NCBI GenBank assembly: GCA_964499635.1
Contig: CAZCLY010000002.1
Location: forward strand, 239,878-303,877
Source of the DNA: an uncultured Gemmatimonadota bacterium
GTDB taxonomy: Bacteria > Gemmatimonadota > Gemmatimonadetes > Palauibacterales > Palauibacteraceae
Reading direction: 5' to 3'
Length of the DNA: 64,000 nucleotides
How positions within the stretch are numbered: position 1 is the first letter of the stretch; each line of letters opens with the position of its first letter. Shown piece by piece: positions 24,928-55,143 of this stretch. The position numbers were made by a program, and so were the translations under genes. The notes below the pieces were generated by a model. It saw only the letters and a list, made by a program, of their open reading frames with translations, had not been told where the DNA came from and did not search any database.

Positions 24928-24962
24928 CGCTGTGAAGCCCCCGTAGCCGAGCCCGAGGGGGG

Positions 24963-25877: not shown

Positions 25878-25891
25878 ATCGACGGTGAGCG

Positions 25892-25912
25892 ACCGGGCCC
25901 GACGGGCCCGGT
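25892..25912. terminator. Hairpin between convergent genes
   Basis: ACCGGGCC cgacg GGCCCGGT forms an 8-bp stem between the stop at 25877 (+) and the stop at 25916 (-). There is no U-tract. Confidence 0.35.
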
Positions 25913-25915
25913 GCG

Positions 25916-28846: not shown

Positions 28847-29059
28847 GCGACCTCCTGGGTGGCAGCTCGGAAGGTCACAATGTGACGGCGAGACGGAGCC
28901 GCCGGCCACCCGGGGCACCGTTTCCGGACGCGCCCCACCGGGACTCATCGCACCATCCGGCAGCGAAGCGTGTCAAATCGAGCGGTCCCTGCACGTTGCA
29001 GGGGGCGGGTCACTTCGGATCCGTACGAGGAAGAACACAACTGGAGGCGGTGCAAGCAA

Positions 29060-29695: not shown

Positions 29696-29704
29696 GCCCG
29701 GCGT

Positions 29705-29723
29705 CCCCCGACGAGGTCGGGGG
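29705..29723. terminator. Hairpin after the OMP gene (convergent with the kinase gene)
   Basis: CCCCCGAC gag GTCGGGGG lies 10 nt after the stop at 29695. A second hairpin (GGGAGACC...GGTCTCCC) follows at about 29739-29779. There is no U-tract. Confidence 0.35.
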
Positions 29724-29827
29724 CGCGGCGAGCGGGCGGGGAGACCGCCGGGGCGCCCTGCCTCGGTGGTCTCCCGTCTGATCCGGGGGCGAGCGCCCCG
29801 ATCGGCGAGGCACGACGCGCATCGCGC

Positions 29828-31240
29828 TCACCGCGATTTGACGGCGTCGCCGAGCCGTGGCAGGGTGAGCCGGGCCACGGCACCGCGTGCCTTCTCCCGA
29901 TTCGAGAGACTGAGGGAGCCGTGGTGGGCCTCCGCGATCTCGCGACACAGGACCAGACCGATCCCGGAGCCGGACTCCTTGGTGGTGTAGAACGGTACGA
30001 ACAGGTTCGAGGTGTCGGCCAACCCCGGACCCTCATCCTCCACCCACACCTCCACCTCGCGGCGCGCGACGCGCCACCCCACGCGCACCACGCCCCCGGT
30101 CTCCTGCGCCGCATCCACGGCGTTGTCCACCAGGTTGATGAGGAGCTGATCCAGCTGATCGCCATCGGCGCGGATTCGGGCCTCGGGGCCCGGACGCAGG
30201 TCGACCTTCATGCGCGTCTCGAGACCGACGGCTCGTCGCACCCACTCGCCGACATCCAGCGGAGCGAGCCTCGGCGGGGGAAGCCGCGCCAGCCGCGCGT
30301 ACGAGGACAGGAAGCGGGCGAGGGCTTCCGCCCGATTCGAGATCACGTCGAGGCCCTGCTCGAGATCCTCGTGCCACGTCTCGGCGTCACCGTTCGTCGG
30401 GTGGCCGTCGTGACGCGAGGCCGACAGCGAGCTCAGGCTCTGGGCGATGGACCGGATCGGCGCGAGCGAGTTGTTGATCTCGTGTCCCAGCACGCGCACC
30501 AGCCGCTGCCAGGCAGAGCGCTCCTCCTCCCGCAGCACGCGACTCAGGTCCGACAGGACGAGCAGGCGGTGCGGTCTGCCTTCCTGACGGAAATGACTCA
30601 CCCGCACTTCCCAGCGGCTCGCCCCGCCCGGGAACACCATGTCCGCGACGCGGCGGGACGGTCCCTTGAGCAGGTCCTCCAGCCCCAGGGATCCGGCCCT
30701 CCGGCCGATCATGCTCTCTTCCGAGCGCTCCACCAGCCGCTCGGCGGCGCGGTTCGCCAGCACGAGGCGATCCTCGTCGTCGAACGCGAACACGGCGACG
30801 TCGATCTCGGACATGACGCGACGCAGGAGCGCGGTCGCCTCGAGGACCTCCAGGCGCTGCTCGCGCAGAGTCTGGCCGAGCAGGTTCACCTCGTGCGCCA
30901 CCAGACCCAGCGCGTCGTCGGGTCGGCCCAGCCGGGCCCGGATGGTGTAGTCGCCCTCCTGGAGGGCCGCGATCATGTTCGACATCGTCTGCAGCGGCCG
31001 CACGAGCCGCTCGCGCAACACCAGCCAGAACCCGAGCCACCCGCCGACGGTGACCAGGGTGAGGGTCCATTGGAGACGGAGGGCGAACTCCCGTGTCCAC
31101 ACGAGGACCAGGGCGACCACGAGCGCCGGCAGGGCGGAGAGGAGCGACAGGAGGGGAACGCGACGCTCGTAGCTGATCCGGGCGCTCTTCACGACCCTCC
31201 CGGCTCTCGACGCGGCACGCGCCCCGTCGCCCCGCGCCAC
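29828..31240 (-). CDS. Sensor histidine kinase (2 TM - HAMP - PAS - HisKA - HATPase), NtrY/NtrB-like
   Basis: The H-box is LGHEINNSLAPI, the HAMP-like segment is PLQTMSNMIAALQEGDY, the N-box is LINLVDNAVDA, and the G-boxes are DEGPGL and GSGIGL. The start is GTG 31240 or GTG 31192. Confidence 0.88.
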   Translation of the reverse strand: MARGDGARAASRAGRVVKSARISYERRVPLLSLLSALPALVVALVLVWTREFALRLQWTLTLVTVGGWLGFWLVLRERLVRPLQTMSNMIAALQEGDYTIRARLGRPDDALGLVAHEVNLLGQTLREQRLEVLEATALLRRVMSEIDVAVFAFDDEDRLVLANRAAERLVERSEESMIGRRAGSLGLEDLLKGPSRRVADMVFPGGASRWEVRVSHFRQEGRPHRLLVLSDLSRVLREEERSAWQRLVRVLGHEINNSLAPIRSIAQSLSSLSASRHDGHPTNGDAETWHEDLEQGLDVISNRAEALARFLSSYARLARLPPPRLAPLDVGEWVRRAVGLETRMKVDLRPGPEARIRADGDQLDQLLINLVDNAVDAAQETGGVVRVGWRVARREVEVWVEDEGPGLADTSNLFVPFYTTKESGSGIGLVLCREIAEAHHGSLSLSNREKARGAVARLTLPRLGDAVKSR

Positions 31241-31280
31241 TAGTGTCCCGTCGAAGACGTACGGTGCGTCGCGTGCACGG

Positions 31281-32651
31281 CTAGGCCTCGATCCCGTGGC
31301 GCTCGAGACGACGATACAACGCGCTGCGACTCACGCCCAGTGCCTCGGCGGCCTGGCTCACGTTGCCGTCGAAGCGTCCCAGGGCGCGCTGGATGAGGAT
31401 ACGTTCGGCCTCCTCCAGCGTCAGCTCGTCGAAGCGGGCCGCGGCATCGGGCGCCGGGCGCAGCCCCAGATCCTCGCCGTCCACGGTGGCGCCCTCCGAC
31501 AGGAGCACGGCCCGCTCGACCGCGTGTCGCAGCTCGCGCACGTTCCCGGGCCAGGTGTGTGCGAGCAGGGCGCGCATGGCCGCCTGCGAGAAGTCGAGCT
31601 CGACCCCGTACCGTGCCGTCTGCTGTTTCAGGAAGTAGGCGGCCAGGGCCGGGATGTCCTCGCGCCGCTCGCGGAGGGGCGGAATCGGGATCTCCACGGA
31701 GTTCAAGCGATACAGGAGATCCTCGCGGAATCGGTCCTCGGCCACCCGCGCCGGCAGATCGGCGTTGGTGGCCGCCAGCACCCGGACGTCCGCCCGCCGC
31801 GCGCGCGACGAGCCCACGCGCTGGAACTCCCCCGTCTCGAGCACGCGCAAGAGCTTCGCCTGCTGGGCGGGGGACAGGTTCCCCACCTCATCCAGGAACA
31901 GGGTCCCCCCGTCCGCGAGCTCGAAGTAGCCTACCCGGTCGGTCTTGGCATCGGTGAACGCGCCCTTCACGTGGCCGAACATCTCGCTCTCGAACAGCGT
32001 CTCCGACAGCCCGCCGGCGTTGACCGCCACGAGCGGCCGGTCGGCGCGCTCCGAGCGGGCATGGAGCCAGCGTGCCACGACCTCCTTGCCGCTGCCGGGC
32101 TCGCCGGTGATGAGGACGCTCGCATCCGACGGCCCGACGCGCTCGATGAGCCTGAGGACGGGCTGCATGGCACGGGAGGTGGCGATGAAGTCCGGAACAT
32201 CGCGCTCGCGCAGGCGCTGGTTCTCGAGCTCGAGGTGCTGGGCGCGCCGCAGCGCGCGCCCGAGCTCGATCTGGGTGCGCAGCGTCGACAGGAGCCGCTG
32301 GTTGTCCCACGGCTTCTCGATGTAGTCACCCGCCCCCTTCCGGATCGCTTCGACCGCCCCCTCGATCGAACCCCACGCGGTCATTACGATGACCGGGAGG
32401 ATGGGATCGACCGACTTGATCCTCGGAATGAGGTCGAGGCCTTCCCGCCCCGAGGTCGTGTCGCGCGCGTAGTTGAGATCCATGAGGACGCCATCGAAGT
32501 CGTGCGACTCGAGGGCGCTCATGATCCCGGGCGGCGACGTCGCGGTCTCGAGCTCGAAACCCTCCCCCTTGAGTAGGAGGCGCAGGGCCCTGAGCACGTC
32601 CTGCTGGTCGTCCCCGATCAGCACGCGCGGAGGTGAGGGCTTGTCGGTCAC
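31281..32651 (-). CDS. Sigma54-dependent response regulator (NtrC-family bacterial enhancer-binding protein)
   Basis: REC (VLIGDDQQDVL, VLMDLNY), an AAA+ sigma54-activation domain (GEPGSGKE, the GAFTGA-type loop KGAFTDA, LFLDEV, RVLAATN, GNVRELRH) and a C-terminal HTH (GNVSQAAEALGVSRSALYRRL). Confidence 0.93.
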   Translation of the reverse strand: MTDKPSPPRVLIGDDQQDVLRALRLLLKGEGFELETATSPPGIMSALESHDFDGVLMDLNYARDTTSGREGLDLIPRIKSVDPILPVIVMTAWGSIEGAVEAIRKGAGDYIEKPWDNQRLLSTLRTQIELGRALRRAQHLELENQRLRERDVPDFIATSRAMQPVLRLIERVGPSDASVLITGEPGSGKEVVARWLHARSERADRPLVAVNAGGLSETLFESEMFGHVKGAFTDAKTDRVGYFELADGGTLFLDEVGNLSPAQQAKLLRVLETGEFQRVGSSRARRADVRVLAATNADLPARVAEDRFREDLLYRLNSVEIPIPPLRERREDIPALAAYFLKQQTARYGVELDFSQAAMRALLAHTWPGNVRELRHAVERAVLLSEGATVDGEDLGLRPAPDAAARFDELTLEEAERILIQRALGRFDGNVSQAAEALGVSRSALYRRLERHGIEA

Positions 32652-32767
32652 GGCAGGAAAGCTAGCACGTCGTCCGGATCCGAGCCCGTCCGCGCGTGCC
32701 GTCGTGGCGTCGACCGGCGGTCCGGGCGCGCGGGTCCGGGCGGCGGGCGCGCGCGCTCGATCCGGGA

Positions 32768-33433
32768 CTAGTCCTCGACGATCCAGCCGTCCGCGAGGTT
32801 GATCACGCGATGGCCGTAGGCCGCGACCTTGGGGTCGTGCGTGACCTGGACGATCGTCGTCCCCGCCTCGTTGAGCTCCTTCAGCATCTGCATGATCTGC
32901 TCTCCCTGCGAGGAGTGGAGGCTGCCGGTGGGCTCGTCGGCGAGGATCAGCCGGGGCTCGGAGATCACCGCGCGTGCCACGGCCACCTGCTGCTGCTGTC
33001 CCCCGGATAGCTGGTTGGGGAACAGGTCCTTCTTCCCCACGATGTTGAACCGGTCGAGGATGTCCGCCACCAGAGCCTGTCGCTCCGACCGCTTCACGTC
33101 CCGGTAGGAGAGCGGGATCTCGAGGTTCTCGTACACGGTCAGATCGTCGATCAGGTGGTACTGCTGGAACACGAACCCGATGTACGCCTTGTGGAGCTCG
33201 TTTCGGTGCTTCGGCTTGAGGGCGTGTACGGGCTCGTCCATGAACCAGTACTCGCCCTCGAACGCCCCATCCAGCAGCCCCATGATGCCGAGCAGGGTGG
33301 ACTTGCCGGCGCCGGACGGACCCATGAAGGTCAGGAATTCGCCCTCACGGACCATGAGGCCGATGCGGCGCAGCACCCAGGTGCGACCGCCCTTGTACGG
33401 ATAGCTCTTCTCTACGTTTTCGAGACGGATCAT
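32768..33433 (-). CDS. MacB/LolD-type ABC ATP-binding protein (cluster ATPase 2)
   Basis: Walker A is GPSGAGKST, the signature is [15 protein letters not shown] and Walker B is [11 protein letters not shown]. Confidence 0.92.
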
Positions 33434-33563
33434 CGCTCGCCGTTCGTTTCTTTCGTCGTTCTCGTCACGGGAAAGGACCGGAACACTCGCACGCAGAACC
33501 TACGTCGCGGCGGCACGCGCGGGCATCCGGGTTCGAGACGCGGCCGGTCGCCGGGCCGGTGGC

Positions 33564-35969
33564 TCATTCGGCGCGCAACGCGACGATCGGGTCGACCCTG
33601 GCCGCGCGCCGTGCCGGGAGAAGCGAGGCGGCGAGCGCGGTGATCAGCAGCAGGAGCGGCACGACGAGGTACACCTGCGGATCCGTCGGGCTCACGCCGT
33701 GCAGGATGCCCGAGATGAGCCGTGCGAGCCAGAACGCCGCCACGAGACCCAACCCCACGCCGAGCAGCGTGAGCTCGAGCCCCGCGCGTACCACATCGCC
33801 GAGCACCCGCCGGACCGGCGCCCCGAGCGCGATGCGAATGCCGATCTCGCGGGTGCGGTCCTGGACGGTGAGCGCGAGCAGCCCGTACAGCCCGATCCCG
33901 GCCAGCAGGGCCGCGAGCGCCGCGAACGCGCCGACCATCGCCGCGTTGAAGCGCGCCGGCGCGACCTGCCGCGACACGGTCCGCGCGAGGGGCTCGACGT
34001 CCACGAGGGGGATGTCGGGATCGAGCTCGGCCACCTCGCGGCGCACGATCCCCACGATCGACTGCGGGTCTCCCGTGGTTCGTACCACCACCTCGAATTC
34101 GCGCGGGTACGGCTGTTGGGCGTGGGGCATGTAGATCTCCGGGCGCGCCGGCTCGTCGAGACCGAAATGGCGCACGTCGCCCACCACGCCGACCACCGTC
34201 CGCCACGGGTCCTCGCTCTCGGGCCCACCCCACCGGAAGCGATCGCCGATCGGATCGATCCCGCCCCAGTACTCGCGGACCGCAGCCTCGTTCACGACCA
34301 CCACGGGCTCGGATGTCGGGCCATCGTCGTCGTCGAAGCCGCGGCCGCTCGCCAGCCGCATCCGCATGGCACGAAAGTACTCGCCCCGGATGATGCGCTC
34401 CTCGGCGCACGCGTCCGGCCGCTCGACGCCGTCGTCGAGCGTGAAGCCGGCACAGGAGGCACCACCGCGGAGCGGGATCAGCTGCCCGCCACCCACCGCC
34501 ACCACCTCGGGCCGCGCGTCGATGCGCTCGAACAGGCGGTCGAAGAAGGCGTGCGAGGCGACCACGTCCGGGTAGTCGGCCGGCGGCGTCTCGACGCGGA
34601 AGGCGAGCACGTGCTCGGGATCGAACCCCGGGTCGATCGCTTCGAGGCCGATGACCGTACGGACCAGGAGACCCGACCCGACGAGGAGCACGATGGAAAG
34701 GGCCACCTGCACCACGACCAGGGCCGAACGGAGCCCGGTGCCGGTCCCTCCGGCGATTCCGCGCGCGCCGCCCGCCTTGAGGGCCGGCACCACGTCGACG
34801 CGGCGGGAGCGGAGCGCCGGGATGAGACCGGACAGCGTCCCCGTGAGAACGGCGACACCGAACGTGAACGCGAGCACCCAGCCGTCGATGCGGATCTGGC
34901 TGGCCCGCGGGAGCTCGGCCGGAAGAACCGCGGTCGCGGCCCCCAGGGACCAGCTCGCCACGACGAGCCCCACCACCCCGCCGAGCGCGGCCACGATGAG
35001 GCTCTCGATCAGGAGCTGCCGCGCGATGCGCCCGGTGCCGGCGCCGAGGGCGGCGCGGATCGCGAGCTCGCGGCGCCGGCGCACGCCCCGGGCCAGACCC
35101 AGGCCGGCCAGGTTGGTGCACGCGATGAGCAGCACGAAGGCCACGGCGCCGAGCAGGATCACGAGCGGCTCGCGGGCCGTCCCGGTCATCGCCCGCGTGA
35201 GGGGCTCGAGCGAGATCGTGCGGCCCTGCTTGAACGGATAGTCCTCGGAGATGGCTCCGAACAGGCGATCGAGCTCCGCGCCGGCCCGGGGAAGATCCGC
35301 CCCGGCGGCCAGCCGGATCATGGCCTTCATGAAGTGACCGCCACGGTTCGCGGGGTCCACGACGTATGGCACCCAGACGTCGGGCTGCGTCCCGGTGATC
35401 GGATCCTCGAAGCCGGGGGGCGCCACGCCCACGAGCTCGTGCTCGACGCCGTTCAGGGTGAGCGTCCGACCCACGGCGTCCGGGTCGCCCGCGAGGAGGG
35501 TGCGCCACATGGCGTACGAGACCACGGCGACGCAGGGCGCCCCGGCCCGGTCCTCGGCGACGCGGAACAGCCGGCCACGAGACGACGTCACTCCGAGCAC
35601 CGAGAAGTAGTTGGCCGACACGAGCCCGACGTCGAGGCTGTGCGGTCGATCGAGCCCGGTGAGGGTGCGCGCCGTCTCCGTTCCGAACGCAAGGCCCTGG
35701 ACCGACGCGGCGTTCGCCAGATCCATCAGATCGGCCGGGTTCAGCGGGCCGTGCGGCTGGCCCTGCGGCGTCGAGAGCCACACGCGCGCCAGCCGAGCCG
35801 GGCTCTCGTAGCGCGGCGCTCGGAGGACGACGCCCCGCACGAGGCTGAACACGGCCGTGTTCGCACCGATTCCGATCGCCAGCGTAGTGACCGCGACGGC
35901 CACGTACCCGGGGCTCCGGGACAGATGACGGAGCGCGTATCGCACGTCCTGCCACAGTCGGTTCAGCAT
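33564..35969 (-). CDS. Duplicated MacB-type ABC permease (ADOP-like), tandem copy 6 of 6 in transcription order
   Basis: 801 aa. The N-terminus is MLNRLWQDVRYALRHLSRSPGYVAVAVTTLAIGIGANTAVFSLV. There are two MacB-periplasmic-domain plus FtsX modules (REIGIRIALGA) and the C-terminus is VALRAE. Confidence 0.92.
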   Translation of the reverse strand: MLNRLWQDVRYALRHLSRSPGYVAVAVTTLAIGIGANTAVFSLVRGVVLRAPRYESPARLARVWLSTPQGQPHGPLNPADLMDLANAASVQGLAFGTETARTLTGLDRPHSLDVGLVSANYFSVLGVTSSRGRLFRVAEDRAGAPCVAVVSYAMWRTLLAGDPDAVGRTLTLNGVEHELVGVAPPGFEDPITGTQPDVWVPYVVDPANRGGHFMKAMIRLAAGADLPRAGAELDRLFGAISEDYPFKQGRTISLEPLTRAMTGTAREPLVILLGAVAFVLLIACTNLAGLGLARGVRRRRELAIRAALGAGTGRIARQLLIESLIVAALGGVVGLVVASWSLGAATAVLPAELPRASQIRIDGWVLAFTFGVAVLTGTLSGLIPALRSRRVDVVPALKAGGARGIAGGTGTGLRSALVVVQVALSIVLLVGSGLLVRTVIGLEAIDPGFDPEHVLAFRVETPPADYPDVVASHAFFDRLFERIDARPEVVAVGGGQLIPLRGGASCAGFTLDDGVERPDACAEERIIRGEYFRAMRMRLASGRGFDDDDGPTSEPVVVVNEAAVREYWGGIDPIGDRFRWGGPESEDPWRTVVGVVGDVRHFGLDEPARPEIYMPHAQQPYPREFEVVVRTTGDPQSIVGIVRREVAELDPDIPLVDVEPLARTVSRQVAPARFNAAMVGAFAALAALLAGIGLYGLLALTVQDRTREIGIRIALGAPVRRVLGDVVRAGLELTLLGVGLGLVAAFWLARLISGILHGVSPTDPQVYLVVPLLLLITALAASLLPARRAARVDPIVALRAE

Positions 35970-35979
35970 GTCACGCCGC

Positions 35980-38403
35980 CTACTCCGTCCGCAGCGTGAT
36001 CATCGGGTCGACGCGGGTGGCCCGCCGGGCGGGCCAGAAGCACGCGAACAGGGCCGACAGGCCGAGCAGGAGCGTGACGCCCCCGAGCGTCAGCGGATCG
36101 GTCGGGGCCACGCCGAACAGGAGGCTCGACAGCGCCCGACCGGCCGCGATCGCCCCGCCCAGGCCGAGGACGATGCCCAGACCCGTCAGGATGGCCCCCT
36201 GACCCATCACCCGTCCCAGCACGTCGCCGGGGCGCGCGCCTAGGGCCATCCGGATCCCGATCTCCCGCGTCTGCCGAGACACCATGAACGCCATCACGCC
36301 GTAGATCCCGATGACCCCCAGGACCAGCGCGAGCCCGGCGAACAGCGCCAGGAGCAGGCTCACGAAGCGCTCCGACGCGATGCTCGTGGCGAACACCTCG
36401 TCCAGAGTGGCCACCTGCGAGACCGGCATGTCCGGGTCGAGGTCCCAGACCGCCTCGCGGAGCGTGTTGGCGTAGGCGGACGGATCGCCGCCCTCGGTGT
36501 GCAGCACGATATTGAGCGCGCGCCCCGGGCGCTGGGCGTACGGGATGAACATCTCGGGACGGGGGGTCGCCGCCACCCCCCGGGTTCGCACCGTCTCGAC
36601 CACGCCGACGATGGTCCACCACGGCGAATCGGGGTCCCGTACGCCTCCGATCTTGATGCGCTTGCCGATCGGGTCCTCGTCGGAGAACTGCTCATCGACC
36701 ATGGACTGGCTCACGACGACGGTGAGGAGTCCGTCGGGACGATCGCTATCGTCCACGTAGCGCCCCCTCAGGAGCGGGATCCGCATGGCCTCGAAGAACC
36801 CCGGGGTGGCTCGCCAGAAGTCGCCGGCCGGCTCCTGTCCAGGCTCCGGAAGCCGTCCCTCCACCCCGAAGCTCACGTCGTTGACGTTTCCACCCAGCGG
36901 GAGCAGTGACGCGCTCCCCACCGCGCGGACGCCCGGAGATGTCTCCAGACGATCCTCGAGTTGCCGGACCAGCTCCGGGAGAACCGACGCATCCGGATAG
37001 TCGGCACCGCTGAACGTGATCTGGCCGGTCAGCGCGTCATCGGTCCGGAATCCCGGATCGACGTGCTGCAGCTCCTGGAAGCTCCGCAGCAGGAGACCCG
37101 CCGCGACGAGGACCGCGACGCCCAGCGCGAGCTCCCCGACCACGAGCGCGCTCCGCAACCGGCTCCCCGCCGCGGCAGTGGACCCGCGCTCCCCCTCGCG
37201 CAGGGTGAGGCTAGACGCCTCGGAGGCATACCCCAGGGCCGGAGCTAGACCGAACAGGAGCCCCGTAAGCACCGAGGCGCCCAGACCGTACAGGAACACG
37301 GCGGCGTCGAGACCGATGGCGGATGCGCGCGGCAGACCCGACGGCGCGAGCTGGACGAGGACGTCGGTGCCCCACACCCCCAGGCCGAGTCCGAGCAGCC
37401 CCCCCGCGATGGCGAGGACCATGCTCTCGGTGAGGAGCTGCCGGGCGATGCGGATCCGTCCGGCTCCCAGCGACGCCCGCACGGCGAGCTCGCGCTCGCG
37501 CACCGATGCGCGTCCCAGGAGCAGATTGGCCACATTGGCGCACGCGATCAGCAGGACCAGGCCCACCGTGGCGAGGAGCACGAAGAGCGGCGTGCGCACG
37601 GGGCCCACCACTGTGTCCCGGAGCGGCTCCAGGGTCACCCCGACGTCGCGATAGTCGACCGGGTTCTCCTCGGCGATCCCCGCCGCGATCCGCTCCATGT
37701 CCGACAGCGCGGCCTCGCGCGTGACGCCCGGGGCGAGCCGTCCGATCACCCGCAGGTAGTAGTTCCCGCGGTCGTCCCGCGAGCGATCGATCGGAAGGAC
37801 ACCCCAGATTTGCGCGTTCGAGATGATGGGCCCCTGGAACCCGGGCGGCGCGACTCCGACGACGACGTGCGGTTCGCCGTTCAGCGTCAGCGATGTCCCG
37901 ATGATGGCCTCATCGCCGCCGAAGCGCTCCTGCCAGAAGTCGTGTCCCAGCACCACGACCCGGTCGTTGCCGGGGGTCTCCTCCCCGGCAGCGAAGCCGC
38001 GTCCCTGCCGGGGCTCCACCCCGAGCACCGAGAAGTACGACGGGCTCACGAGCGCCCCGTTGAGGACATCGGGCCGCTCGCCAGCGGTCAGGTTGGGCTG
38101 CCACCCCGTCAGGGCCGCCATGCCGGAGAAGGTCCGGTTCCGGTCGCGCCACTCGGCGAAGGTCGTGCGCCCCGTCCACTCGTTGGCCGGCCCTCCGCGA
38201 AGCTCCTGGTTCTCCCACACGGTCAGCAGTCGACCGGATTCCGGATACGGCAACGGCTCTAGCAGCACCCCGTTCACGACGCTGAAGATCGACGTGTTCA
38301 CGCCGATCCCGAGCGCCACGGTGAGGAGCGCGATGGCCGTGAAGCCGGGATTGCGCCGCAGGGCGCGGAACGCGAACCGAATGTCCTGTCGCAGCGTTTC
38401 CAT
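35980..38403 (-). CDS. Duplicated MacB-type ABC permease (ADOP-like), tandem copy 5
   Basis: I chose ATG 38403 (METLRQDIRFAFRALRRNPGFTAIALLTVALGIGVNTSIFSVV), giving 807 aa with the C-terminus ITLRTE. The 1343-aa track ORF is an upstream read-through in the wrong frame of the next gene. Confidence 0.92.
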   Translation of the reverse strand: METLRQDIRFAFRALRRNPGFTAIALLTVALGIGVNTSIFSVVNGVLLEPLPYPESGRLLTVWENQELRGGPANEWTGRTTFAEWRDRNRTFSGMAALTGWQPNLTAGERPDVLNGALVSPSYFSVLGVEPRQGRGFAAGEETPGNDRVVVLGHDFWQERFGGDEAIIGTSLTLNGEPHVVVGVAPPGFQGPIISNAQIWGVLPIDRSRDDRGNYYLRVIGRLAPGVTREAALSDMERIAAGIAEENPVDYRDVGVTLEPLRDTVVGPVRTPLFVLLATVGLVLLIACANVANLLLGRASVRERELAVRASLGAGRIRIARQLLTESMVLAIAGGLLGLGLGVWGTDVLVQLAPSGLPRASAIGLDAAVFLYGLGASVLTGLLFGLAPALGYASEASSLTLREGERGSTAAAGSRLRSALVVGELALGVAVLVAAGLLLRSFQELQHVDPGFRTDDALTGQITFSGADYPDASVLPELVRQLEDRLETSPGVRAVGSASLLPLGGNVNDVSFGVEGRLPEPGQEPAGDFWRATPGFFEAMRIPLLRGRYVDDSDRPDGLLTVVVSQSMVDEQFSDEDPIGKRIKIGGVRDPDSPWWTIVGVVETVRTRGVAATPRPEMFIPYAQRPGRALNIVLHTEGGDPSAYANTLREAVWDLDPDMPVSQVATLDEVFATSIASERFVSLLLALFAGLALVLGVIGIYGVMAFMVSRQTREIGIRMALGARPGDVLGRVMGQGAILTGLGIVLGLGGAIAAGRALSSLLFGVAPTDPLTLGGVTLLLGLSALFACFWPARRATRVDPMITLRTE

Positions 38404-38438
38404 GGTGCTCCTGTCGGGTACGCGGGCTCGTCCGTCCT

Positions 38439-40874: not shown

Positions 40875-40916
40875 GCGGCGGCCGCTACGGCGCCCGACGC
40901 GGGTGTCTTCGGCGCT

Positions 40917-43349
<2,433 letters not shown>

Positions 43350-43350
43350 C

Positions 43351-45774
<2,424 letters not shown>

Positions 45775-45778
45775 CGGG

Positions 45779-48190
45779 TCATTCCCGACGCAGGGTGCGC
45801 GCCGGATCGACGCGAGAGGCCCGAACGGCCGGCGCGGCGCTCGCCACCAGCGCGGTCGTGGCGAGCACGAGGGCCACCACCGCGTAGGTCAGCGGATCGC
45901 TCGGCTCGACCCCGAACAGAAGGCTCTGGATGAGCCCGGTGAGGCCGAGCGAGCCTACGATGCCGATCACGAGCCCGATCGTCGACAGCCACAGCCCACG
46001 TCCCACGATCAGCTTCAGCACATCCGTGGAGCGGGCGCCGAGGGCCATGCGAACACCGATCTCCCCGCGTCTCTGCACGACCGCGTACGACAGGATCCCG
46101 TACAGACCCTGGACCGCGATCACCAGCGCCAGCGCCGCGAACAGCGCCACGAGCGTCGAGGTGAAGCGCTGCGGCGCGATCGAATCGGACACGAGCCGAT
46201 CGAGCGGCGCGATCTGGTCGAAGGGGACGGCGGGATCGACGGACCACACGGCGTCCTTCACAGCCCTCGTGAGCGTCGCGTCGTCACCGGGGCCGCGGGC
46301 GACTAGGGTTCCGAACCGCCCCCAGGCCATCTGCCGTTGAGGATACGGCACGTATATCGTGTAGTCGTCCGGCCCCGACAGCGTGTTCTGCTTCACGTCG
46401 GCGACCACGCCCACGACGGTCATCCACTCCGGCTCGGGCGTGTACAGCGCGGCCACCCGCTTGCCGACCGGATCCTCGTCGGGCCAGTACCGGCGTGCGA
46501 ACGTCTCGTTCACGACGGCGACGCGGGGCGCCTCGGCGTCGTCCGTCTCCTCGAAGGCGCGACCCCGCCGTACGGGGACCTCCATGGTGCGGAAGTAGTC
46601 TCCCAGCACGAGACGGATCCGGGCGCTGGGTCGGTTGCCGGGTTCCGGCGGGGGTCGGTCGTCGAACGCGATGCTGTTGCCGATGGAGCCGTACGCGGTG
46701 AGCGGCGCTCCCAGGATGAAGGCGGCCCGCTCGACACCCGGCGAGGACTCGAGCGTCTCGAGGATGCGGTCGAAGGCGGCATCCTGGAGCTCCGTGTCGC
46801 CGTACCGCGACTCCGGCAGCACGAGGTTGGCGGTGATGACGTGCGCGGGCTCGAACCCGAGCTCGACGTGGCGGAGCGACTGGAAGCTGCGGAGCAGCAG
46901 CGTCGAGCCGACCAGCAGGAGCGCGGCGAGCGCCACCTCGGCGACCACCAGGGCGCTCAACGTGCGCCCGCTCCGGCCCGCCGCCCCACGACCGCCCCCG
47001 CGCGCGAGGAGGTCCGCCGGGTCGCGCCGCATCGCATGGAGGGCCGGGACCCAGCCGAACACGAGCGCCGTGGCGACGCACAGCCCCGCGGTGAACAGGA
47101 GGACGCCCGGATGGATCCCGATCTGATCCACCCGCGGCAGACCCGCCGGCGCCAGGGCGATCAGCGCACGCGCCCCCCACCAGGCCAGCAGGGTGCCCAG
47201 CGCGCCGCCGGCCAGCGACAGGAGCACGGCTTCGCCCAGCGCCGAGCCGGCAACCCGCCAGCGGCTCCCGCCGAGCGCCATGCGGACGGCGACCTCGCGC
47301 TCGCCCGCACTGGCGCGCACCAGGAGCAGGTTGGCCACGTTCGCGCACGTGATCAGGAGGACCAGACCCACGGCGCCGAACAGGACCCACAGCGCGGTCC
47401 GCGCCGGCCCCACCACCCGGTCACGCAGCGGGATGCCGTGCACGATCTTGCCCTGGTTGGTGTCCGGGTATGCGTCCGCGAGCCGCGTCGTGATCGTCTC
47501 GATCTCGGCGCTCGCCGCCGCGACCGACACCCCCGGATCCACCCGCGCGATGGCCTCGAAGTTGTTCGACCCCCTCGACTCGAGGAACATCGGGGTCGCG
47601 TCGGCCACCGTAAGCCACATGTCCGTGCCGGCCTGCAGGAAGTCGAACTCCGCCGGCATCACGCCGACGACCGTGAACACCTCCCCACCGAGCCGGAGCG
47701 GTGACCCGACGACGGCCGGATCGGCCCCCAGCCGTCCCCGCCAGAAGGGCTCGGAGACCACCGCGACGCGCTCGCTGCCCTCCACATCGTCGCTCGTGGC
47801 GAGGACCCGGCCGTACAGGGGCGTGGTCTCGAGCACGCGGAAGTACTCCGGCTCGACGACCGATGCCGCCACCCGCTCGGGCTCGCCGGAGCCCGTGAGG
47901 TCGAAGGCCCAGAACGGCAGGTACAGGGCGACGTCCTGGAGCACGGTCTCCTGCATGCGGAGATCCGCGCCGTCCGGGATGGACAGATCGCTCTCCATGG
48001 CCCCCGGACGCGTGAGGAACAGGAGCTGGTCGGCGTCCTCGAACGGGAGCGACCTCAGGAGCACCCCGTCCACCACGCTGAAGATGGCGGTGTCGGCACC
48101 GATCCCGAGGGCGAGCGTCAGGACCGCGACGATCGTGAACGTCGGCGCCGACAGAAGCCGGCGGGCGACGCGTCTGACCTGGGGGAGCAT
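45779..48190 (-). CDS. Duplicated MacB-type ABC permease (ADOP-like), tandem copy 1
   Basis: I chose ATG 48190 (MLPQVRRVARRLLSAPTFTIVAVLTLALGIGADTAIFSVVDG); the track start at 48238 is possible. The C-terminus is RTLRRE and the stop lies 4 nt from the next start. Confidence 0.9.
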   Translation of the reverse strand: MLPQVRRVARRLLSAPTFTIVAVLTLALGIGADTAIFSVVDGVLLRSLPFEDADQLLFLTRPGAMESDLSIPDGADLRMQETVLQDVALYLPFWAFDLTGSGEPERVAASVVEPEYFRVLETTPLYGRVLATSDDVEGSERVAVVSEPFWRGRLGADPAVVGSPLRLGGEVFTVVGVMPAEFDFLQAGTDMWLTVADATPMFLESRGSNNFEAIARVDPGVSVAAASAEIETITTRLADAYPDTNQGKIVHGIPLRDRVVGPARTALWVLFGAVGLVLLITCANVANLLLVRASAGEREVAVRMALGGSRWRVAGSALGEAVLLSLAGGALGTLLAWWGARALIALAPAGLPRVDQIGIHPGVLLFTAGLCVATALVFGWVPALHAMRRDPADLLARGGGRGAAGRSGRTLSALVVAEVALAALLLVGSTLLLRSFQSLRHVELGFEPAHVITANLVLPESRYGDTELQDAAFDRILETLESSPGVERAAFILGAPLTAYGSIGNSIAFDDRPPPEPGNRPSARIRLVLGDYFRTMEVPVRRGRAFEETDDAEAPRVAVVNETFARRYWPDEDPVGKRVAALYTPEPEWMTVVGVVADVKQNTLSGPDDYTIYVPYPQRQMAWGRFGTLVARGPGDDATLTRAVKDAVWSVDPAVPFDQIAPLDRLVSDSIAPQRFTSTLVALFAALALVIAVQGLYGILSYAVVQRRGEIGVRMALGARSTDVLKLIVGRGLWLSTIGLVIGIVGSLGLTGLIQSLLFGVEPSDPLTYAVVALVLATTALVASAAPAVRASRVDPARTLRRE

Positions 48191-48283
48191 GATCCCGTCT
48201 CCGGCTGGCGTGAGGTCGAGGAGGCCGGCGGTGGACACGCCGCCGGCGGGCGGACGGCCGGCCCGTGCGAGCCGGCCCCCGGA

Positions 48284-49045
48284 TCAGGCGATCTCGAACC
48301 CGCTTTCCTTGAGCTCCTCGATCGCCCGCTCGGCGTGCTCCTCGTCCTCGACGATCCGCCCGTCGAACAGGTGGATCGTGCGCTCCGAGAACTCCGCGTA
48401 TCGCGGATCGTGCGTGACCATGCAGATGGTCGCGCCCTCCATGTGGAGTTCCTTCAAGAGCTCCATCACGGCGTTGCCGTTCGTGGAGTCGAGGTTCCCC
48501 GTCGGCTCGTCGGCGAGCACGATCAGCGGATCCCCGACCACGGCGCGCGCCACGGCGACGCGCTGCTGCTGGCCGCCGGACAGCTGGGCCGGATAGTGGT
48601 TCCGGCGGTGTGACATGCCCACCCGTTCGAGCGCCTCGAGCGTGCGCTCCTTGCGCTCGCTGGAGGGCATTCCCTCCCGGTACGTGAGCGGGAGCTCGAC
48701 GTTCTCGTACACCGTGAGATCGCCGATCAGGTTGAACGCCTGGAAGACGAACCCGATGTGACGGTTGCGGATCCGGGCGCGTTGAGAGGCCGACAGCTCC
48801 GCCACCGGCTGACCGTCGAGCAGGTACTCGCCGGCCGTAGGCGTGTCGAGCAGCCCGAGCAGCGAGAGGAGCGTCGACTTCCCGCATCCCGAGGGCCCCG
48901 CGATCGACAGGAACTCGCCTTCCGGGATCTCGAGGTGGATGTCGGACAGGGCGTGGGTCTCCACTTCCTCGGTGTAGAACACCTTCTTCACGCCCTGGAG
49001 CTCGATGAGGGCCCTGCGGTCGCCGTTCGACGTCTGTTCGCTCAT
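48284..49045 (-). CDS. MacB/LolD-type ABC ATP-binding protein (cluster ATPase 1) with a C-terminal acidic extension
   Basis: ATG 49045 follows GGAAGG. Walker A is GPSGCGKST, the signature is LSGGQQQRVAVARAV and Walker B is [11 protein letters not shown]. An extra ~30-aa tail reads EDEEHAERAIEELKESGFEIA. Confidence 0.92.
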   Translation of the reverse strand: MSEQTSNGDRRALIELQGVKKVFYTEEVETHALSDIHLEIPEGEFLSIAGPSGCGKSTLLSLLGLLDTPTAGEYLLDGQPVAELSASQRARIRNRHIGFVFQAFNLIGDLTVYENVELPLTYREGMPSSERKERTLEALERVGMSHRRNHYPAQLSGGQQQRVAVARAVVGDPLIVLADEPTGNLDSTNGNAVMELLKELHMEGATICMVTHDPRYAEFSERTIHLFDGRIVEDEEHAERAIEELKESGFEIA

Positions 49046-49076
49046 GATCTCACCTTCCGGTCAACGCCGGGTTGGG

Positions 49077-49104
49077 ACGCCGTCGGGGACGACCCCCGAC
49101 GGCG
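49077..49104. other. Perfect 12-bp GC-rich hairpin with a tetraloop in the intra-cluster spacer
   Basis: ACGCCGTCGGGG acga CCCCGACGGCGT lies 32 nt upstream of the ATPase start. A T7/A7 run is at 49166-49172 and an ACGTACGT palindrome at 49203-49210, all in the same 200-nt spacer. Confidence 0.7.
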
Positions 49105-49245
49105 TTCGGCCGTCGACCGGTGCGCGGCGGGCGTGCCCGCGAAACTCTGCCTTGCCACAGGAGGGTTTTTTTGTCGCGCACCGGCGTGTTCGGTTCCTCT
49201 GGACGTACGTTACGACTCCCGCGGAGGTTTGCCCGGGGGTGCCTC

Positions 49246-50679
49246 CTACCGGATCCGGATGCGGTCCGCATCGGCGACGCGCGACAGATCCGACAGGATG
49301 ATCACGTCTCCCTCCTGGAGACCCTCCACGACTTCGATCTCGTTCACCGAGCTGCGGCCGAGCTGCACGGTCACCCTGACGGCCTCGCCTCCGTCCCCCA
49401 CCACCTTGAACAGGCTGACCGAGCTGTTCGCCTGTCCGTAGGCCGGGCGATCGACGAACAACACGTCCTGGAGCCGCTCGAGCTCGATCGTCCCGTCGAC
49501 GCTCAGATCGGGACGGGCGCCCGGAGGCAGCTCCTCCGTGAGCCGCACTTCGACGAGCACGGATCCGTTCTGGACGTTCGGGTCCACCCTTCGGACGGCT
49601 CCAGCGATCGAATCGTTGCGCGTGTCGATGACTACGGGCTGACCGATCTGGACATCTCGCGCCTGCGTCTCGGGAATCCGGAGCTCGGCCTTGAGGCGGC
49701 CCGGCTGCGCCACGCGGGCCAGCGTCGTCCCCGCCTGGACGTACTGACCCACCTCGAGAGACAGGTCCTGGATGACTCCGCCCGCTCCCGACATCACCTG
49801 CATCGACTCCACGCGCCGTTGCTGCTGCTGGACGATCGACTGGAGCCGCGCGATCTGCTCGCGCTGCACCTGGAGCTGCGTGTCGACGCTCGAGCGCATG
49901 AGCTCGAGCCGGCCACGCTCCGCATCGACCCGCACCTTCGCGGCGTTCGCCTGCTCGATCGCGCTGCTGGCCTCGTTGCGCGACACCGTCTGGTTCTCGA
50001 CCAGCTCGCGGAACGCATCGGCCTCGCGTTGCGCGGCCTGGTAGTCCGCCTCCGCCGTCGCGACCGTCGACTCCTGCTGGAGGATCGAGGTCTGGAGGCT
50101 CTGATCGAGCGTGATCAGGGTCGCGCGGGCCTGCGTGAGCTGCTGCTGGGCCTGGAGCGCCTGGAGCTCGACGTCGGGGTTCGACAACACGACCAGCACG
50201 GTCGTGTCCGTCACCGTCTCTCCGGGCTGCACGAACACCTGCTCCACCCGCCCCCCGGTGAGCGCGGCGACGTACACGATCTGCTCCGGCACGAGCGTTC
50301 CCGGCCCCCGCACCTCGCGCACGAAGGAGCCGCGCTCGACGGTGCCGAACAGCTGAATATCCCGATCCACGCTGGGCGCCGCCGGTTCGAGGCGGGAGAG
50401 GAGGAACGTCACGACGATCACCGCCAGCACGCCGGCGCCGATCCACATGTTACGACGACGCTTGCGGCTGCCGCCGGCGCGCTTGACGTCCATACCGGCA
50501 CCGCCGCCGATACCGATCTGGATGCGCCGACCGGGGTCGCCCGGCTCCGTCTCCGACCCGATCGCGGGCTCGCCCTTCGCCCTGCGTCCGAAACGCTTCT
50601 TCTCCCTGCCGCCGACCTCGGCCGACAGCCCGGGGCGTTTGCGGGGCGAGCGATCGGCCGGTTCGCTGCCTGAGCTCAC
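49246..50679 (-). CDS. HlyD-family periplasmic adaptor (membrane fusion protein) heading the permease cluster
   Basis: The anchor is WIGAGVLAVIVVTFLL. A long coiled-coil follows (LQALQAQQQLTQARATL...), then LRIPETQARDVQIGQPVVIDTRN. The start is GTG 50679 (AGGAA 7 nt upstream) or ATG 50493. Confidence 0.88.
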   Translation of the reverse strand: MSSGSEPADRSPRKRPGLSAEVGGREKKRFGRRAKGEPAIGSETEPGDPGRRIQIGIGGGAGMDVKRAGGSRKRRRNMWIGAGVLAVIVVTFLLSRLEPAAPSVDRDIQLFGTVERGSFVREVRGPGTLVPEQIVYVAALTGGRVEQVFVQPGETVTDTTVLVVLSNPDVELQALQAQQQLTQARATLITLDQSLQTSILQQESTVATAEADYQAAQREADAFRELVENQTVSRNEASSAIEQANAAKVRVDAERGRLELMRSSVDTQLQVQREQIARLQSIVQQQQRRVESMQVMSGAGGVIQDLSLEVGQYVQAGTTLARVAQPGRLKAELRIPETQARDVQIGQPVVIDTRNDSIAGAVRRVDPNVQNGSVLVEVRLTEELPPGARPDLSVDGTIELERLQDVLFVDRPAYGQANSSVSLFKVVGDGGEAVRVTVQLGRSSVNEIEVVEGLQEGDVIILSDLSRVADADRIRIR

Positions 50680-50805
50680 GTCATATTCCTGCTTCTAGGT
50701 CGCACCGCGTCGCGGGCGCCGTGAATCCTGTCTCCTCACGCACGGGGACCGCCGGGTCCGCCTCCGCGTACCCGGGCGGCGCTCCCGGCGATCCAACCGA
50801 TATAG

Positions 50806-50821
50806 GGCAATGCCCGTACCA
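50806..50821 (-). promoter_or_regulatory. Sigma54 (-24/-12) promoter candidate for the HlyD/ATPase/permease cluster
   Basis: The minus-strand sequence TGGTACGGGCATTGCC matches the consensus TGGCACG-N4-TTGCW with exact GG-to-GC spacing. It lies ~125 nt upstream of GTG 50679, and a sigma54-dependent activator is encoded in the same cluster. Confidence 0.7.
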
Positions 50822-50840
50822 CACCTCGCTTCCACCCATA

Positions 50841-50864
50841 AGTCTATGTCAGGATGTCATATAG
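50841..50864. promoter_or_regulatory. AT-rich element with tandem ATGTCA repeats immediately upstream of the sigma54 -24 box
   Basis: The sequence is AGTCTATGTCAGGATGTCATATAG. Its first 11 nt are identical to 61800-61810, inside the PadR-gene palindrome. Confidence 0.35.
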
Positions 50865-50887
50865 CGCGATGCGTAGCCCGCCCGGCC

Positions 50888-50953
50888 CGGACTCGGGGTG
50901 GGCGGTTTCGGGACGCGGTGTCCGGATCTGAACGCCACGGCCCCCGGAGTCCG
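50888..50953. promoter_or_regulatory. Candidate enhancer (UAS) dyad upstream of the sigma54 promoter
   Basis: CGGACTCGGGG (50888-50898) and CCCCGGAGTCCG (50942-50953) form an inverted repeat with one indel, 67-132 nt upstream of the -24 element. Confidence 0.25.
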
Positions 50954-53628: not shown

Positions 53629-53663
53629 CCGGGCCGCGGGGGGCTCGTCGGGGCGGCCCGGGG

Positions 53664-55028: not shown

Positions 55029-55063
55029 CGTGACCGGTTACGGACATGGAATCCCGTGACCGG
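55029..55063 (+). promoter_or_regulatory. Direct repeat CGTGACCGG x2 (candidate enhancer site)
   Basis: The copies are at 55029-55037 and 55055-55063, 26 nt apart and 80-115 nt upstream of the sigma54-like -24 box at 55144. Confidence 0.25.
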
Positions 55064-55143
55064 ACGCTTCCGGGCCGGCATGAGGGCTCGCCGGCATCGT
55101 CCAAGTCGTTGTCAGCCCGTCACTTGGTCCCGACGAGAGACAG

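Follow-up and report, generated by a model that had tools for sequence, protein, structure and literature searches.

A candidate sigma-54-dependent regulon of duplicated MacB-type permeases with an HlyD-family adaptor and ABC ATPases in an uncultured Gemmatimonadota bacterium

The acidobacterial duplicated orphan permeases (ADOPs, TIGR03434), in whose family name "orphan" denotes, according to the TIGRFAM description, that no ATP-binding cassette (ABC) ATPase gene is adjacent, rank with the largest families of paralogues in Acidobacteriota and Gemmatimonadota, both of them phyla that are dominant in soil, and we know of no member with a known substrate, partner or regulator. Here, we analyze a 64,000-nucleotide stretch of DNA from a metagenome assembly of an uncultured Gemmatimonadota bacterium (contig CAZCLY010000002.1, positions 239,878 to 303,877; hereafter "the window"), in which a 21-kb cluster places six ADOP genes between two ABC ATPase genes, preceded by the gene of an HlyD-family periplasmic adaptor and followed by the genes of an NtrC-family activator and a histidine kinase. 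The parts come from known families (type VII ABC, HlyD, and the bacterial enhancer-binding proteins, bEBPs); it is the organization that is distinct, with many pseudo-dimeric permeases per motor/adaptor set.

Among described systems, MacAB-TolC (PDB 5NIK, 5GKO and 5LIL) shares with this locus the FtsX-type module of four transmembrane (TM) helices with a MacB periplasmic domain between TM1 and TM2, an adaptor of the HlyD/membrane fusion protein (MFP) family, a MacB/LolD-type nucleotide-binding domain (NBD) and, in relatives of the locus, TolC-family genes in the same regulon. In contrast to MacAB-TolC, however, the permease is here one polypeptide with 8 TM helices, in which two MacB-type halves are fused to each other but not to an NBD, the ATPases are separate proteins (two paralogues), there are up to seven permeases per adaptor, control is by sigma-54 and a bEBP, and no outer membrane factor (OMF) is encoded in the window. 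E. coli YbbAP-TesA (PDB 9GE6-9GE8) is likewise built on a pseudo-dimeric type VII permease of ~800 residues with two periplasmic domains and a separate ATPase (2:1); YbbP has 10 TM helices, including a TM5-6 linker pair, and binds two copies of YbbA and one of TesA, a periplasmic thioesterase (PMC12646458), whereas the ADOPs, at 13% identity, have 8 TM helices and are accompanied by an HlyD adaptor instead of a thioesterase. BceAB-BceRS of Bacillota, finally, also combines a type VII ABC transporter with a two-component kinase that has two TM helices and hardly any extracellular loop, but there the regulator, BceR, is of the OmpR/sigma-70 type, and the permease, BceB, combines 10 TM helices with one periplasmic domain, while we find here a sigma-54 AAA+ activator, a kinase with HAMP and PAS domains, and an adaptor.

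Within the ADOP family itself, which was defined from Acidobacteria together with its PadR partners (TIGR03433), two ADOPs of the window are PadR-coupled as classically described, whereas the six clustered copies and a seventh, ADOPx, have no PadR; the clustered six moreover have ATPase and adaptor genes at their sides and are devoid of the N-terminal prefix domain of the PadR-linked copies. ADOP arrays as such are known from genomic island 43 of Psychroflexus torquis, a 42-kb cluster of about ten paralogues and further transporter genes, some of them ATP-binding, that is highly translated according to proteomics (PMC3914696); unlike the present locus, that cluster belongs to Bacteroidota and to a mobile island with transposases, and no sigma-54, two-component system or enhancer is described for it. 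Sigma-54 is near-universal in lipopolysaccharide-bearing diderms and tied to the cell exterior (PMC3162934), and a 2025 comparison of Gammaproteobacteria, Opitutia and Bacteroidia found predicted sigma-54 promoters to be enriched before COG0577 permeases and COG1136 ATPases, which it calls the first such evidence (PMC12316311); in contrast to our analysis, it does not cover Gemmatimonadota or Acidobacteriota and contains no activator subfamily, enhancer, fixed spacing or ADOP arrays. Full-text searches brought up only two papers in which ADOPs are named, and the enhancer and its activator, like the cassette variability and the permease-less cores described below, are defined neither in PMC3914696 nor in PMC12316311. 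The view, expressed in an initial annotation of this DNA, that such an array has not been characterized is qualified by the predicted link of sigma-54 to FtsX-type permeases (PMC12316311) and by the known ADOP arrays (PMC3914696).

Our preferred reading, to which we assign a probability of roughly 60%, is that the locus specifies an inducible sigma-54-dependent regulon for MacAB-TolC-like (type VII ABC) envelope efflux, with interchangeable parts. The feature itself is real, its predicted regulation is well supported in silico, and a putative chain leading from the enhancer through the sigma-54 promoter to HlyD, ATPase, ADOP and outer membrane efflux protein (OEP) genes is supported by conservation. 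The eleven minus-strand genes of the initial annotation are all present between 29828 and 50679, in the order and at the positions it gave:

49246-50679 (-), HlyD/MFP-family periplasmic adaptor gene (HlyD_D23 and HlyD_3, TIGR01730)
48284-49045 (-), ABC ATPase a, a MacB/LolD/DevA-type NBD (ABC_tran, 5e-35)
45779-48190 (-), ADOP permease 1 (TIGR03434, 889 bits)
43351-45774 (-), ADOP permease 2 (TIGR03434, 855 bits)
40917-43349 (-), ADOP permease 3 (TIGR03434, 911 bits)
38439-40874 (-), ADOP permease 4 (TIGR03434, 899 bits)
35980-38403 (-), ADOP permease 5 (TIGR03434, 950 bits; start set at ATG 38403)
33564-35969 (-), ADOP permease 6 (TIGR03434, 879 bits)
32768-33433 (-), ABC ATPase b (49% identical to ATPase a)
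31281-32651 (-), sigma-54 enhancer-binding response regulator, REC-AAA+-HTH_8 (Sigma54_activat, PF00158, 5.7e-64, 215 bits)
29828-31240 (-), membrane histidine kinase (two TM helices, HAMP, PAS, H-box, HATPase_c)

The GC content of the window is 70-73%, GC at the third codon position (GC3) parts true genes cleanly from spurious open reading frames, and GC3 is 0.89-0.92 for all eleven cluster genes. From permease 1 to permease 6 the intervening gaps are 4, 1, 42, 35 and 10 nt, and the remaining gaps of the cluster are 200 (between HlyD and ATPase a), 93, 130, 116 and 40 nt, so that the sizes first reported (1-42 nt between permeases, 40-200 nt elsewhere) are correct. The profile hidden Markov model (HMM) searches suggested at the time (TIGR03434, FtsX, MacB_PCD, HlyD and Sigma54_activat) are all matched by the expected genes.

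The evidence that carries our reading begins at the head of the cluster, where promoter and enhancer are arranged as follows:

50807-50821 (-), sigma-54 promoter P1, TGGTAC-GGGCA-TTGC, with the -24 GG at 50820-50819 and the -12 GC at 50808-50807
50836-50866 (-), AT-rich spacer from enhancer to promoter, read from the sequence
50900-50933 (-), enhancer (upstream activating sequence, UAS) of P1, tandem palindromes GTTCAGATCCGGAC-ACCGCG-TCCCGAAACCGCCC, starting 112 nt upstream of -24

The promoter element TGGTACGGGCATTGC at 50821-50807 (-) is the sole exact match to TGGYAC-N5-TTGC on both strands of the window (128 kb), against an expectation of 0.05. Scanning the HlyD protein against 185,579 species genomes yielded 39 loci, mostly from Gemmatimonadota metagenome-assembled genomes (MAGs), which we annotated with the window proteins and refer to by number. 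GGCAC-N5-TTGC, or a close variant of it, lies upstream of the HlyD orthologue (43-75% identical) in all 12 loci (L002-L010, L025, L027 and L028) in which the activator/kinase pair is present or the locus ends before the pair could appear, and is missing from the paralogous HlyD-ATPase-ADOP loci without this pair (L011-L024). Aligning the orthologous upstream regions brought to light the palindrome pair of the enhancer, modeled as GTCCG-N4-CGGAC-N6-TCCCG-N4-CGGAC, to which the P1 enhancer has 4 mismatches over 20 positions. With at most 4 mismatches, this model is found in 9 of 20 promoter regions, compared to 6 of 3000 random 160-nt controls drawn from the same loci, and in 11 of the 20 regions (ten Gemmatimonadota-type loci and one from Terriglobia) the enhancer starts 109-112 nt upstream of the -24 T, a fixed phasing as expected of a bEBP enhancer. 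By such phylogenetic footprinting, and by its uniqueness in the window, the sigma-54 promoter that the initial annotation had placed at the cluster head is judged to be genuine.

We note that lone palindromes of the form GTCCG-N4/5-CGGAC are uninformative at 71% GC, with counts at or below chance, and that only the fixed-spacing composite is specific. We rejected TGGAGTCTCATTTGCT at 29055-29070 (-), which also resembles a sigma-54 promoter and precedes an S9 peptidase gene, as it overlaps the start of a divergent outer membrane protein (OMP) gene (ATG 29060) and has no enhancer. The AT-rich stretch recurs at the equivalent place in most orthologous promoters and is possibly a DNA-bending or integration host factor (IHF)-type site; no convincing IHF consensus was found in it, and we keep it only as a possible bend.

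The window contains exactly two copies of CGGAC-N6-TCCCG, each of them 88 nt upstream of one of its two best -24/-12 matches, and the composite CGGAC-N6-TCCCG-N{70,100}-GGYAC-N5-TTGC likewise has two matches, both of 118 nt, where 0.01 would be expected. One is P1; the other (P2, spanning 55041-55158 on the plus strand) belongs to a second control unit:

55032-55065 (+), enhancer (UAS) of P2, GACCGGTTACGGAC-ATGGAA-TCCCGTGACCGGAC, with 1 of 20 positions mismatched and the same 112-nt offset as in P1
55144-55158 (+), sigma-54 promoter P2, CGGCAC-GCCCG-TTGC (CGGCACGCCCGTTGC), 47 nt before ATG 55206
55206-57629 (+), ADOPx, the seventh ADOP (TIGR03434, 889 bits; start set by the canonical ADOP N-terminus)

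P2 is predicted to drive this seventh ADOP 4.4 kb upstream of the cluster and on the opposite strand, and ADOPx is monocistronic, with no ATPase or adaptor of its own. An identical control unit before ADOPx indicates that the regulatory unit is a regulon reaching beyond the coordinates first reported, and the description of the cluster as one 21-kb unit has to be amended to that extent, from a single operon to a regulon. True orthologues of ADOPx, sought to test whether P2 is conserved, were not found (the best match has 45% identity). In the closest relative genome (L002), too, an ADOP stands apart in the opposite orientation, equipped with an enhancer and a sigma-54 promoter, and the same design is seen in Opitutus (L106, two promoters) and in Terriglobia (L111).

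When the composite, with its gap narrowed to 84-91 nt, is used to scan the genome collection, at least 120 exact matches are obtained. Among the matches listed, 21 lie directly upstream of an HlyD or ADOP homologue and one (L171) precedes a TolC-family gene, which is followed by a second unit and HlyD; these 22 have 0-3 mismatches at the 10 enhancer positions outside the query. The other 98 listed comprise 89 with 5-10 mismatches, two with 4, and seven with 0-3, the last being further true sites, such that the mismatch distribution among the matches listed is cleanly bimodal. The true sites listed belong to Gemmatimonadota, to Acidobacteriota (Aminicenantes among them) and to two Gammaproteobacteria MAGs. 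They stand before OEP/TolC-family genes in L124, L142 and L171 (Acidobacteriota and Aminicenantes), with L124 and L212 being neighboring segments of one chromosome on which OEP is followed by HlyD, and before PadR together with a prefix-bearing ADOP in L132 and L169. In two Gemmatimonadota MAGs (L183:134-748(-) and L199:7272-7859(+)) a true unit directly precedes the gene of a signal-peptide protein of ~196 residues, 66% identical between the two, which matches no Pfam family, is without a homologue in the window and is possibly a periplasmic member or a substrate of the regulon. On an Acidobacteriota chromosome (L160:2131-3266(-)), an insertion sequence element (helix-turn-helix plus DDE_3 transposase) lies between enhancer/promoter and HlyD. 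A match before a bEBP gene in L168 was considered as evidence of autoregulation and rejected, since the enhancer flanks do not match and the loop of that bEBP is the canonical GAFTGA.

These sites bear on the efflux duct. No TolC-family OMF gene is found in the 64-kb window, as first noted, and the genes flanking the related Gemmatimonadota clusters sampled (2-oxoacid dehydrogenase, TypA/BipA and similar) include no OEP. As relatives place TolC-family genes under the same promoter type, however, the apparent lack of a duct would be best explained by its being encoded elsewhere in the regulon.

Among the relatives, Gemmatimonadota share a conserved core that runs from the promoter through HlyD and ATPase to activator and kinase, with variable content between the ATPase and the activator gene. 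The number of ADOP cassettes per core is zero in L009, L010 and L028, two in L008, three in L004 and L007, at least four in L002 and L005, and six in the window, and in L025 the second ATPase stands alone between the first ATPase and the activator. For the three cores with zero cassettes, no FtsX/ADOP gene was detected within 15-21 kb (tblastn, E below 0.01). Their genes, at about 10000-14800, form a permease-less HlyD-ATPase-activator-kinase operon with a conserved sigma-54 promoter, upstream of which the element GTTCGCTTTCGGTACAGTATGTGCGATATT has a recognizable first palindrome and a second half that is off the GTCCG/TCCCG consensus. The adaptor and ATPase of such permease-less cores must work with permeases encoded elsewhere.

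Positional orthologues can be recognized for much of the remaining content: ADOP1 has one of 60% identity at the matching position in L002, ADOP3 is 61-68% identical to its orthologues in L002-L005, L007 and L008, ADOP4 is 59-67% identical to those in L002, L004, L005 and L007, and ADOP5 is 63-71% identical to its own, with no orthologue of ADOP2 or ADOP6 among the sampled loci. In L004, L007, L008 and L025, the gene immediately preceding that of the activator encodes an orthologue of ATPase b (66-86% identity). The signal-induced multi-permease machine of the first description can be kept as regards sigma-54 control and synteny, but it is better described as a regulon with a variable number (0-6) of cassettes.

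The initial annotation also supposed that the regulator may sit inside its own regulon. The ATPase-to-activator junction of the minimal operons measures -2 to about 60 nt and is short or overlapping in L009, L010, L025 and L028, which favors co-transcription of the regulator and with it a positive feedback, and makes it plausible that the regulator genes are co-transcribed with the pump genes here as well. In Verrucomicrobiota, however, the genes of activator and kinase precede the sigma-54 promoter (L072 and L106, the latter with an internal sigma-54 promoter in its array), and autoregulation is on this evidence lineage-specific. The linkage of activator and kinase to HlyD-ATPase-ADOP genes is itself conserved in several phyla, with a divergent arrangement in Woeseiaceae, and this conserved synteny, obtained from the survey that had been proposed, supports a functional tie between the regulator pair and the pump genes.

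To see how widespread such clusters are, 79 ADOP loci were collected as the best matches to ADOPx; they are not a random sample and come mostly from Acidobacteriota, and within about 6 kb at least two ADOPs are present in 42 of them, an ATPase in 19, PadR in 17, HlyD in 9 and an activator in 8. HlyD-ATPase arrays with three to five ADOPs, and NtrC-kinase-HlyD-ATPase arrays with three, were encountered repeatedly in Terriglobia, Pyrinomonadaceae, Spartobacteria and Opitutus. Clusters of this type thus occur widely in Gemmatimonadota, Acidobacteriota and Verrucomicrobiota and are not unusual in their composition, and the window holds the largest example found. The term "orphan" fits ADOPx, ADOPy, ADOP0 and an incomplete copy at the window end, all of them without an adjacent ATPase gene, but not the six that are flanked by ATPases, nor the 19 of 79 loci with an ATPase.

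Turning to the permeases, each of the six in the cluster contains two MacB_PCD (PF12704) and two FtsX (PF02687) stretches and scores 855-950 bits on TIGR03434, for which the curated cutoff is 622.3 bits. Beyond the cluster, ADOPx, ADOPy and ADOP0 reach 889, 904 and 808 bits, and the incomplete ADOP at the window end 597 bits over 518 of the 803 model positions; the count of six thus stands for the cluster, but the window holds ten ADOP genes in all. The six are full length (~800 residues each) and free of frameshifts, and the suspicion of decaying copies does not apply to them, given these properties together with their GC3 and bit scores. They are 36-44% identical to one another and to the other ADOPs of the window, which makes them ancient paralogues and no recent tandem duplicates: "tandem duplicated", as they were first called, is right for the internal domain duplication and wrong for the genes themselves.

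Hydropathy indicates 8 TM helices in every ADOP, arranged as two direct 4-TM repeats. An AlphaFold2 (AF2) model of ADOP5, built from an alignment of nine window ADOPs (predicted local distance difference test score, pLDDT, 80; predicted template modeling score, pTM, 0.73), contains 8 TM helices, two periplasmic domains, a disordered linker (395-412) and short helices at 303-311 (TM2/3) and about 720-725 (TM6/7), the positions of coupling helices, so that the features of the type VII (MacB) fold, namely the 4-TM bundle, the periplasmic domain and the coupling helices, are present in this model. The best Foldseek match to ADOP5 is E. coli YbbP (9GE6) over its full length (E 7.6e-20, TM-score 0.44), followed by MacB, Spr0694/5, LolCDE, BceAB and HrtB, with YbbP, MacB, LolCDE, HrtB and BceAB at a probability of 1.00. 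A sequence search of the PDB gave half-length MacB matches only, and hence no ADOP structure. The permeases are not MacB proper (80-125 bits on NF007826, against a cutoff of 966, with the ATPases as separate genes), nor are they of the YbbAP type (a sole match of 26 bits on NF041854, against a cutoff of 999); with 8 TM helices compared to the 10 of YbbP, the ADOPs differ from it in fusion topology.

The adaptor reaches 121.9 bits on TIGR01730 (cutoff 94.9), matches HlyD_D23 and HlyD_3 of Pfam, and has one TM helix (79-97) and about 120 coiled-coil-like residues between the lipoyl half-motifs; in our reading, this coiled coil (an alpha-hairpin) resembles that of TolC-docking adaptors. In ATPase a and ATPase b alike, the Walker A, Walker B, LSGGQ signature and H-loop motifs are preserved, consistent with a mechanotransmission that would be driven by ATP hydrolysis in the bound NBD dimer, and the best NCBIfam matches of ATPase a are DarD, MacB-NBD and LolD, all under the equivalog cutoffs.

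The activator consists of Response_reg, Sigma54_activat, AAA_lid and HTH_8 domains and has, as first read, an intact Walker A (GEPGSGKE) and a GAFTGA-type loop (KGAFTDA). This GAFTDA (once GAYTDA), with Asp for the second Gly, recurs in every one of the 16 cluster-linked activators, which belong to four phyla, a common loop that marks them as one dedicated subfamily; the activator falls under every NCBIfam equivalog cutoff (NtrC, AtoC, ZraR and PrsR), with 360 bits compared to 558.6 for NtrC (TIGR01818). The kinase, which is conserved beside the activator, has two TM helices with a loop of ~9 residues between them, followed by HAMP, PAS, H-box and HATPase_c; it scores 58 bits on NtrB (NF008293, cutoff 240) and is membrane-bound with a HAMP domain, unlike the soluble NtrB. 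The assignment to an NtrC/NtrB-type system thus holds for an NtrC-family activator with its kinase, with the provisos that the kinase is of an AtoS/ZraS-like HAMP-PAS type and that the activator misses the NtrC cutoff. As there is no periplasmic sensor domain, the kinase would sense in the membrane, in the cytoplasm, or via a partner such as the transporter; the likeness to the loopless BceS suggests, by analogy only, sensing through the transporter, and the sensor-less kinase might read transporter load as in Bce systems.

Taken together, we envisage that the kinase, sensing in the membrane, in the cytoplasm via its PAS domain or through the transporter, would phosphorylate the NtrC-family activator, as suggested by the domain composition of the two proteins. 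The activator would in turn bind the tandem palindromic enhancer ~112 nt upstream of the -24/-12 element, where conservation establishes the cis-elements and co-occurrence points to the binding, and RNA polymerase-sigma54 would transcribe HlyD, ATPase a, the six ADOPs, ATPase b and probably the activator and kinase genes. Judging from gene spacing, this transcription of the system's own regulator genes could provide positive feedback, and the second, identical promoter would have the seventh ADOP transcribed. Each ADOP, an 8-TM pseudo-dimer with two MacB-type periplasmic domains according to the HMMs and the AF2 model, would engage two NBD subunits through its two coupling helices, associate with a hexameric HlyD adaptor and rely on a TolC-family duct whose gene lies elsewhere. 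The two ATPases and the one adaptor would be shared by the six permeases of the cluster, and all seven permeases (36-44% identical) would confer separate substrate specificities on one motor and adaptor set, such that diverse toxic or amphipathic compounds could be expelled from the periplasm or the outer leaflet.

Several points weigh against this efflux regulon. To our knowledge, no ADOP has been characterized biochemically, and efflux for this reason rests on MacB homology and on the linkage to HlyD and OEP genes. Both rpoN and a TolC-family gene are absent from the 64-kb window, the P1 enhancer is more degenerate than that of P2 (4 compared to 1 mismatches), and it is from co-occurrence only that the enhancer would be bound by the cluster's own activator and not by another bEBP. 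Furthermore, a stable hairpin follows HlyD (z-score -3.95) and three further gaps measure 93-130 nt, and internal termination or internal promoters could operate within the cluster.

A bolder version of the efflux reading, which we put forward tentatively and hold to be less likely than not, is that the HlyD-ATPase core serves as a common engine, joined in trans by numerous scattered ADOPs that would act as the swappable, substrate-specific heads of a single combinatorial ABC machine. It is supported by the permease-less cores, by the presence of ADOPx on the same enhancer and promoter, and by the 0-6 cassettes between the ATPase genes, and would, if true, explain why the ADOP family looks orphan. 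Many permeases on one motor, as the locus suggests, would be unusual for the ABC superfamily. With its relatives, the locus moreover provides three handles through which the "orphan permease" problem becomes open to direct testing: a dedicated subfamily of activators carrying the GAFTDA loop, a signature of enhancer and promoter that is precisely spaced and able to read out the regulon in any genome, and a candidate motor/adaptor set (HlyD and one or two ATPases, with TolC-family genes in the regulon of relatives).

The gap after HlyD bears most directly on a rival account, in which P1 drives HlyD only and transcription stops at ~49079-49115, the remaining genes having accreted as paralogues on unrecognized promoters of their own. 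Overlapping perfect hairpins (CGACGGC/GCCGTCG and GCCGTCGGGG/CCCCGACGGC) indeed occupy 49079-49115 (-) in this 200-nt gap, where the stretch 49046-49190 has an RNA fold z-score of -3.95, and they may be a partial terminator, an attenuator, or an element for mRNA processing or stabilization. A REP-like repeat or a known RNA was rejected as their identity, there being no second copy in the window and no Rfam match. We speculate that a partial terminator here might set a high adaptor-to-pump ratio, given a MacA:MacB ratio of 6:2 in 5NIK. Gaps of 93, 130 and 116 nt elsewhere, the need of a two-component system for some basal expression, the regulator genes upstream of the promoter in L072 and L106, which implies a promoter of their own there, and the internal sigma-54 promoter of L106 would all fit such a patchwork. 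The hairpin is not conserved, however, as orthologous HlyD-ATPase gaps are only 15-66 nt and have none; the permease junctions are 1-42 nt; and the one-strand gene order is conserved across genomes. Scanning 29000-48999 turned up neither another sigma-54/UAS unit nor any site resembling a sigma-70 promoter or a terminator, although the scan for the last two relied on an E. coli consensus and is weak evidence. On balance, we think the patchwork unlikely and transcription of the whole 21 kb as one unit the better prediction.

We consider it just as improbable that the ADOPs are mechanotransmission devices in the manner of LolCDE, FtsEX and YbbAP-TesA, serving lipid or lipoprotein extraction or enzyme activation, with the HlyD-like protein as a periplasmic scaffold without a TolC duct. 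That the best full-length structural match is YbbP, of a lipid-extracting non-efflux system, that neither the window nor the sampled Gemmatimonadota clusters contain a linked TolC gene, and that this promoter type drives the ~196-residue secreted protein in two Gemmatimonadota MAGs are all in keeping with such a function. It has to contend, however, with the tight multi-phylum linkage to HlyD-family adaptors that have a long coiled-coil hairpin, with Acidobacteriota OEP genes that are under the same enhancer and promoter and adjoin the HlyD cluster (L171, and L124 with L212), and with the 8 TM helices of the ADOPs compared to the 10-TM topology of YbbP and BceB; the HlyD and OEP linkage in particular appears to make a non-efflux role less likely than efflux. 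Least of all do we credit a redundant or decaying array of surplus copies without distinct roles, some of them non-functional: despite the huge expansion of the family (10 copies in the 64-kb window) and a cassette number of 0-6 among related genomes, all six permeases are full length without frameshifts (GC3 0.89-0.92, 855-950 bits on TIGR03434), the positional orthologues that four of them have in other genomes, at 59-71% identity, point to purifying selection over a long time, and their mutual identity of 36-44% is that of ancient, diverged copies.

Outside the regulon, the window holds further ADOPs. PadR (53664-54083) and ADOP0 (50962-53700) form a PadR-ADOP pair on the minus strand, and a second PadR (61833-62174, 119 bits on TIGR03433) precedes an ADOP that starts at ~62101 on the plus strand and runs off the window end. 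Both PadR-paired ADOPs have an N-terminal extension of ~110 residues (perm_prefix_1), which is lacking in the clustered ADOPs, and 16 PadR-ADOP pairs in other genomes have the same spacing of 230-375 nt, compared to a median of 67 nt for in-array ADOPs, which points to two putative ADOP classes with different regulators. ADOPy (57698-60091, minus strand, 904 bits) is full length and convergent with ADOPx, and has no PadR, ATPase or upstream sigma-54/UAS unit.

Downstream of the cluster lie signaling genes, namely an anti-sigma factor (zf-HC2, 19333-22107) beside an extracytoplasmic function (ECF) sigma factor, a REC-PAS-GGDEF-EAL protein (22196-24445) and a GGDEF protein (24963-25877), followed by the genes of an S9 peptidase of ~1000 residues (25916-28948) and of a small OMP beta-barrel (~29060-29695), the latter converging with that of the kinase; a link of this neighborhood (19333-29695) to the permease cluster was not established. 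Finally, a separate, classical MacA/MacB-like operon at 12548-16018 (+) comprises an HlyD gene (12548-13957), an ATPase gene (13947-14804) and a gene for a single-length FtsX/MacB_PCD permease (14801-16018), joined by overlapping junctions, and the genome thus also holds a conventional type VII pump.

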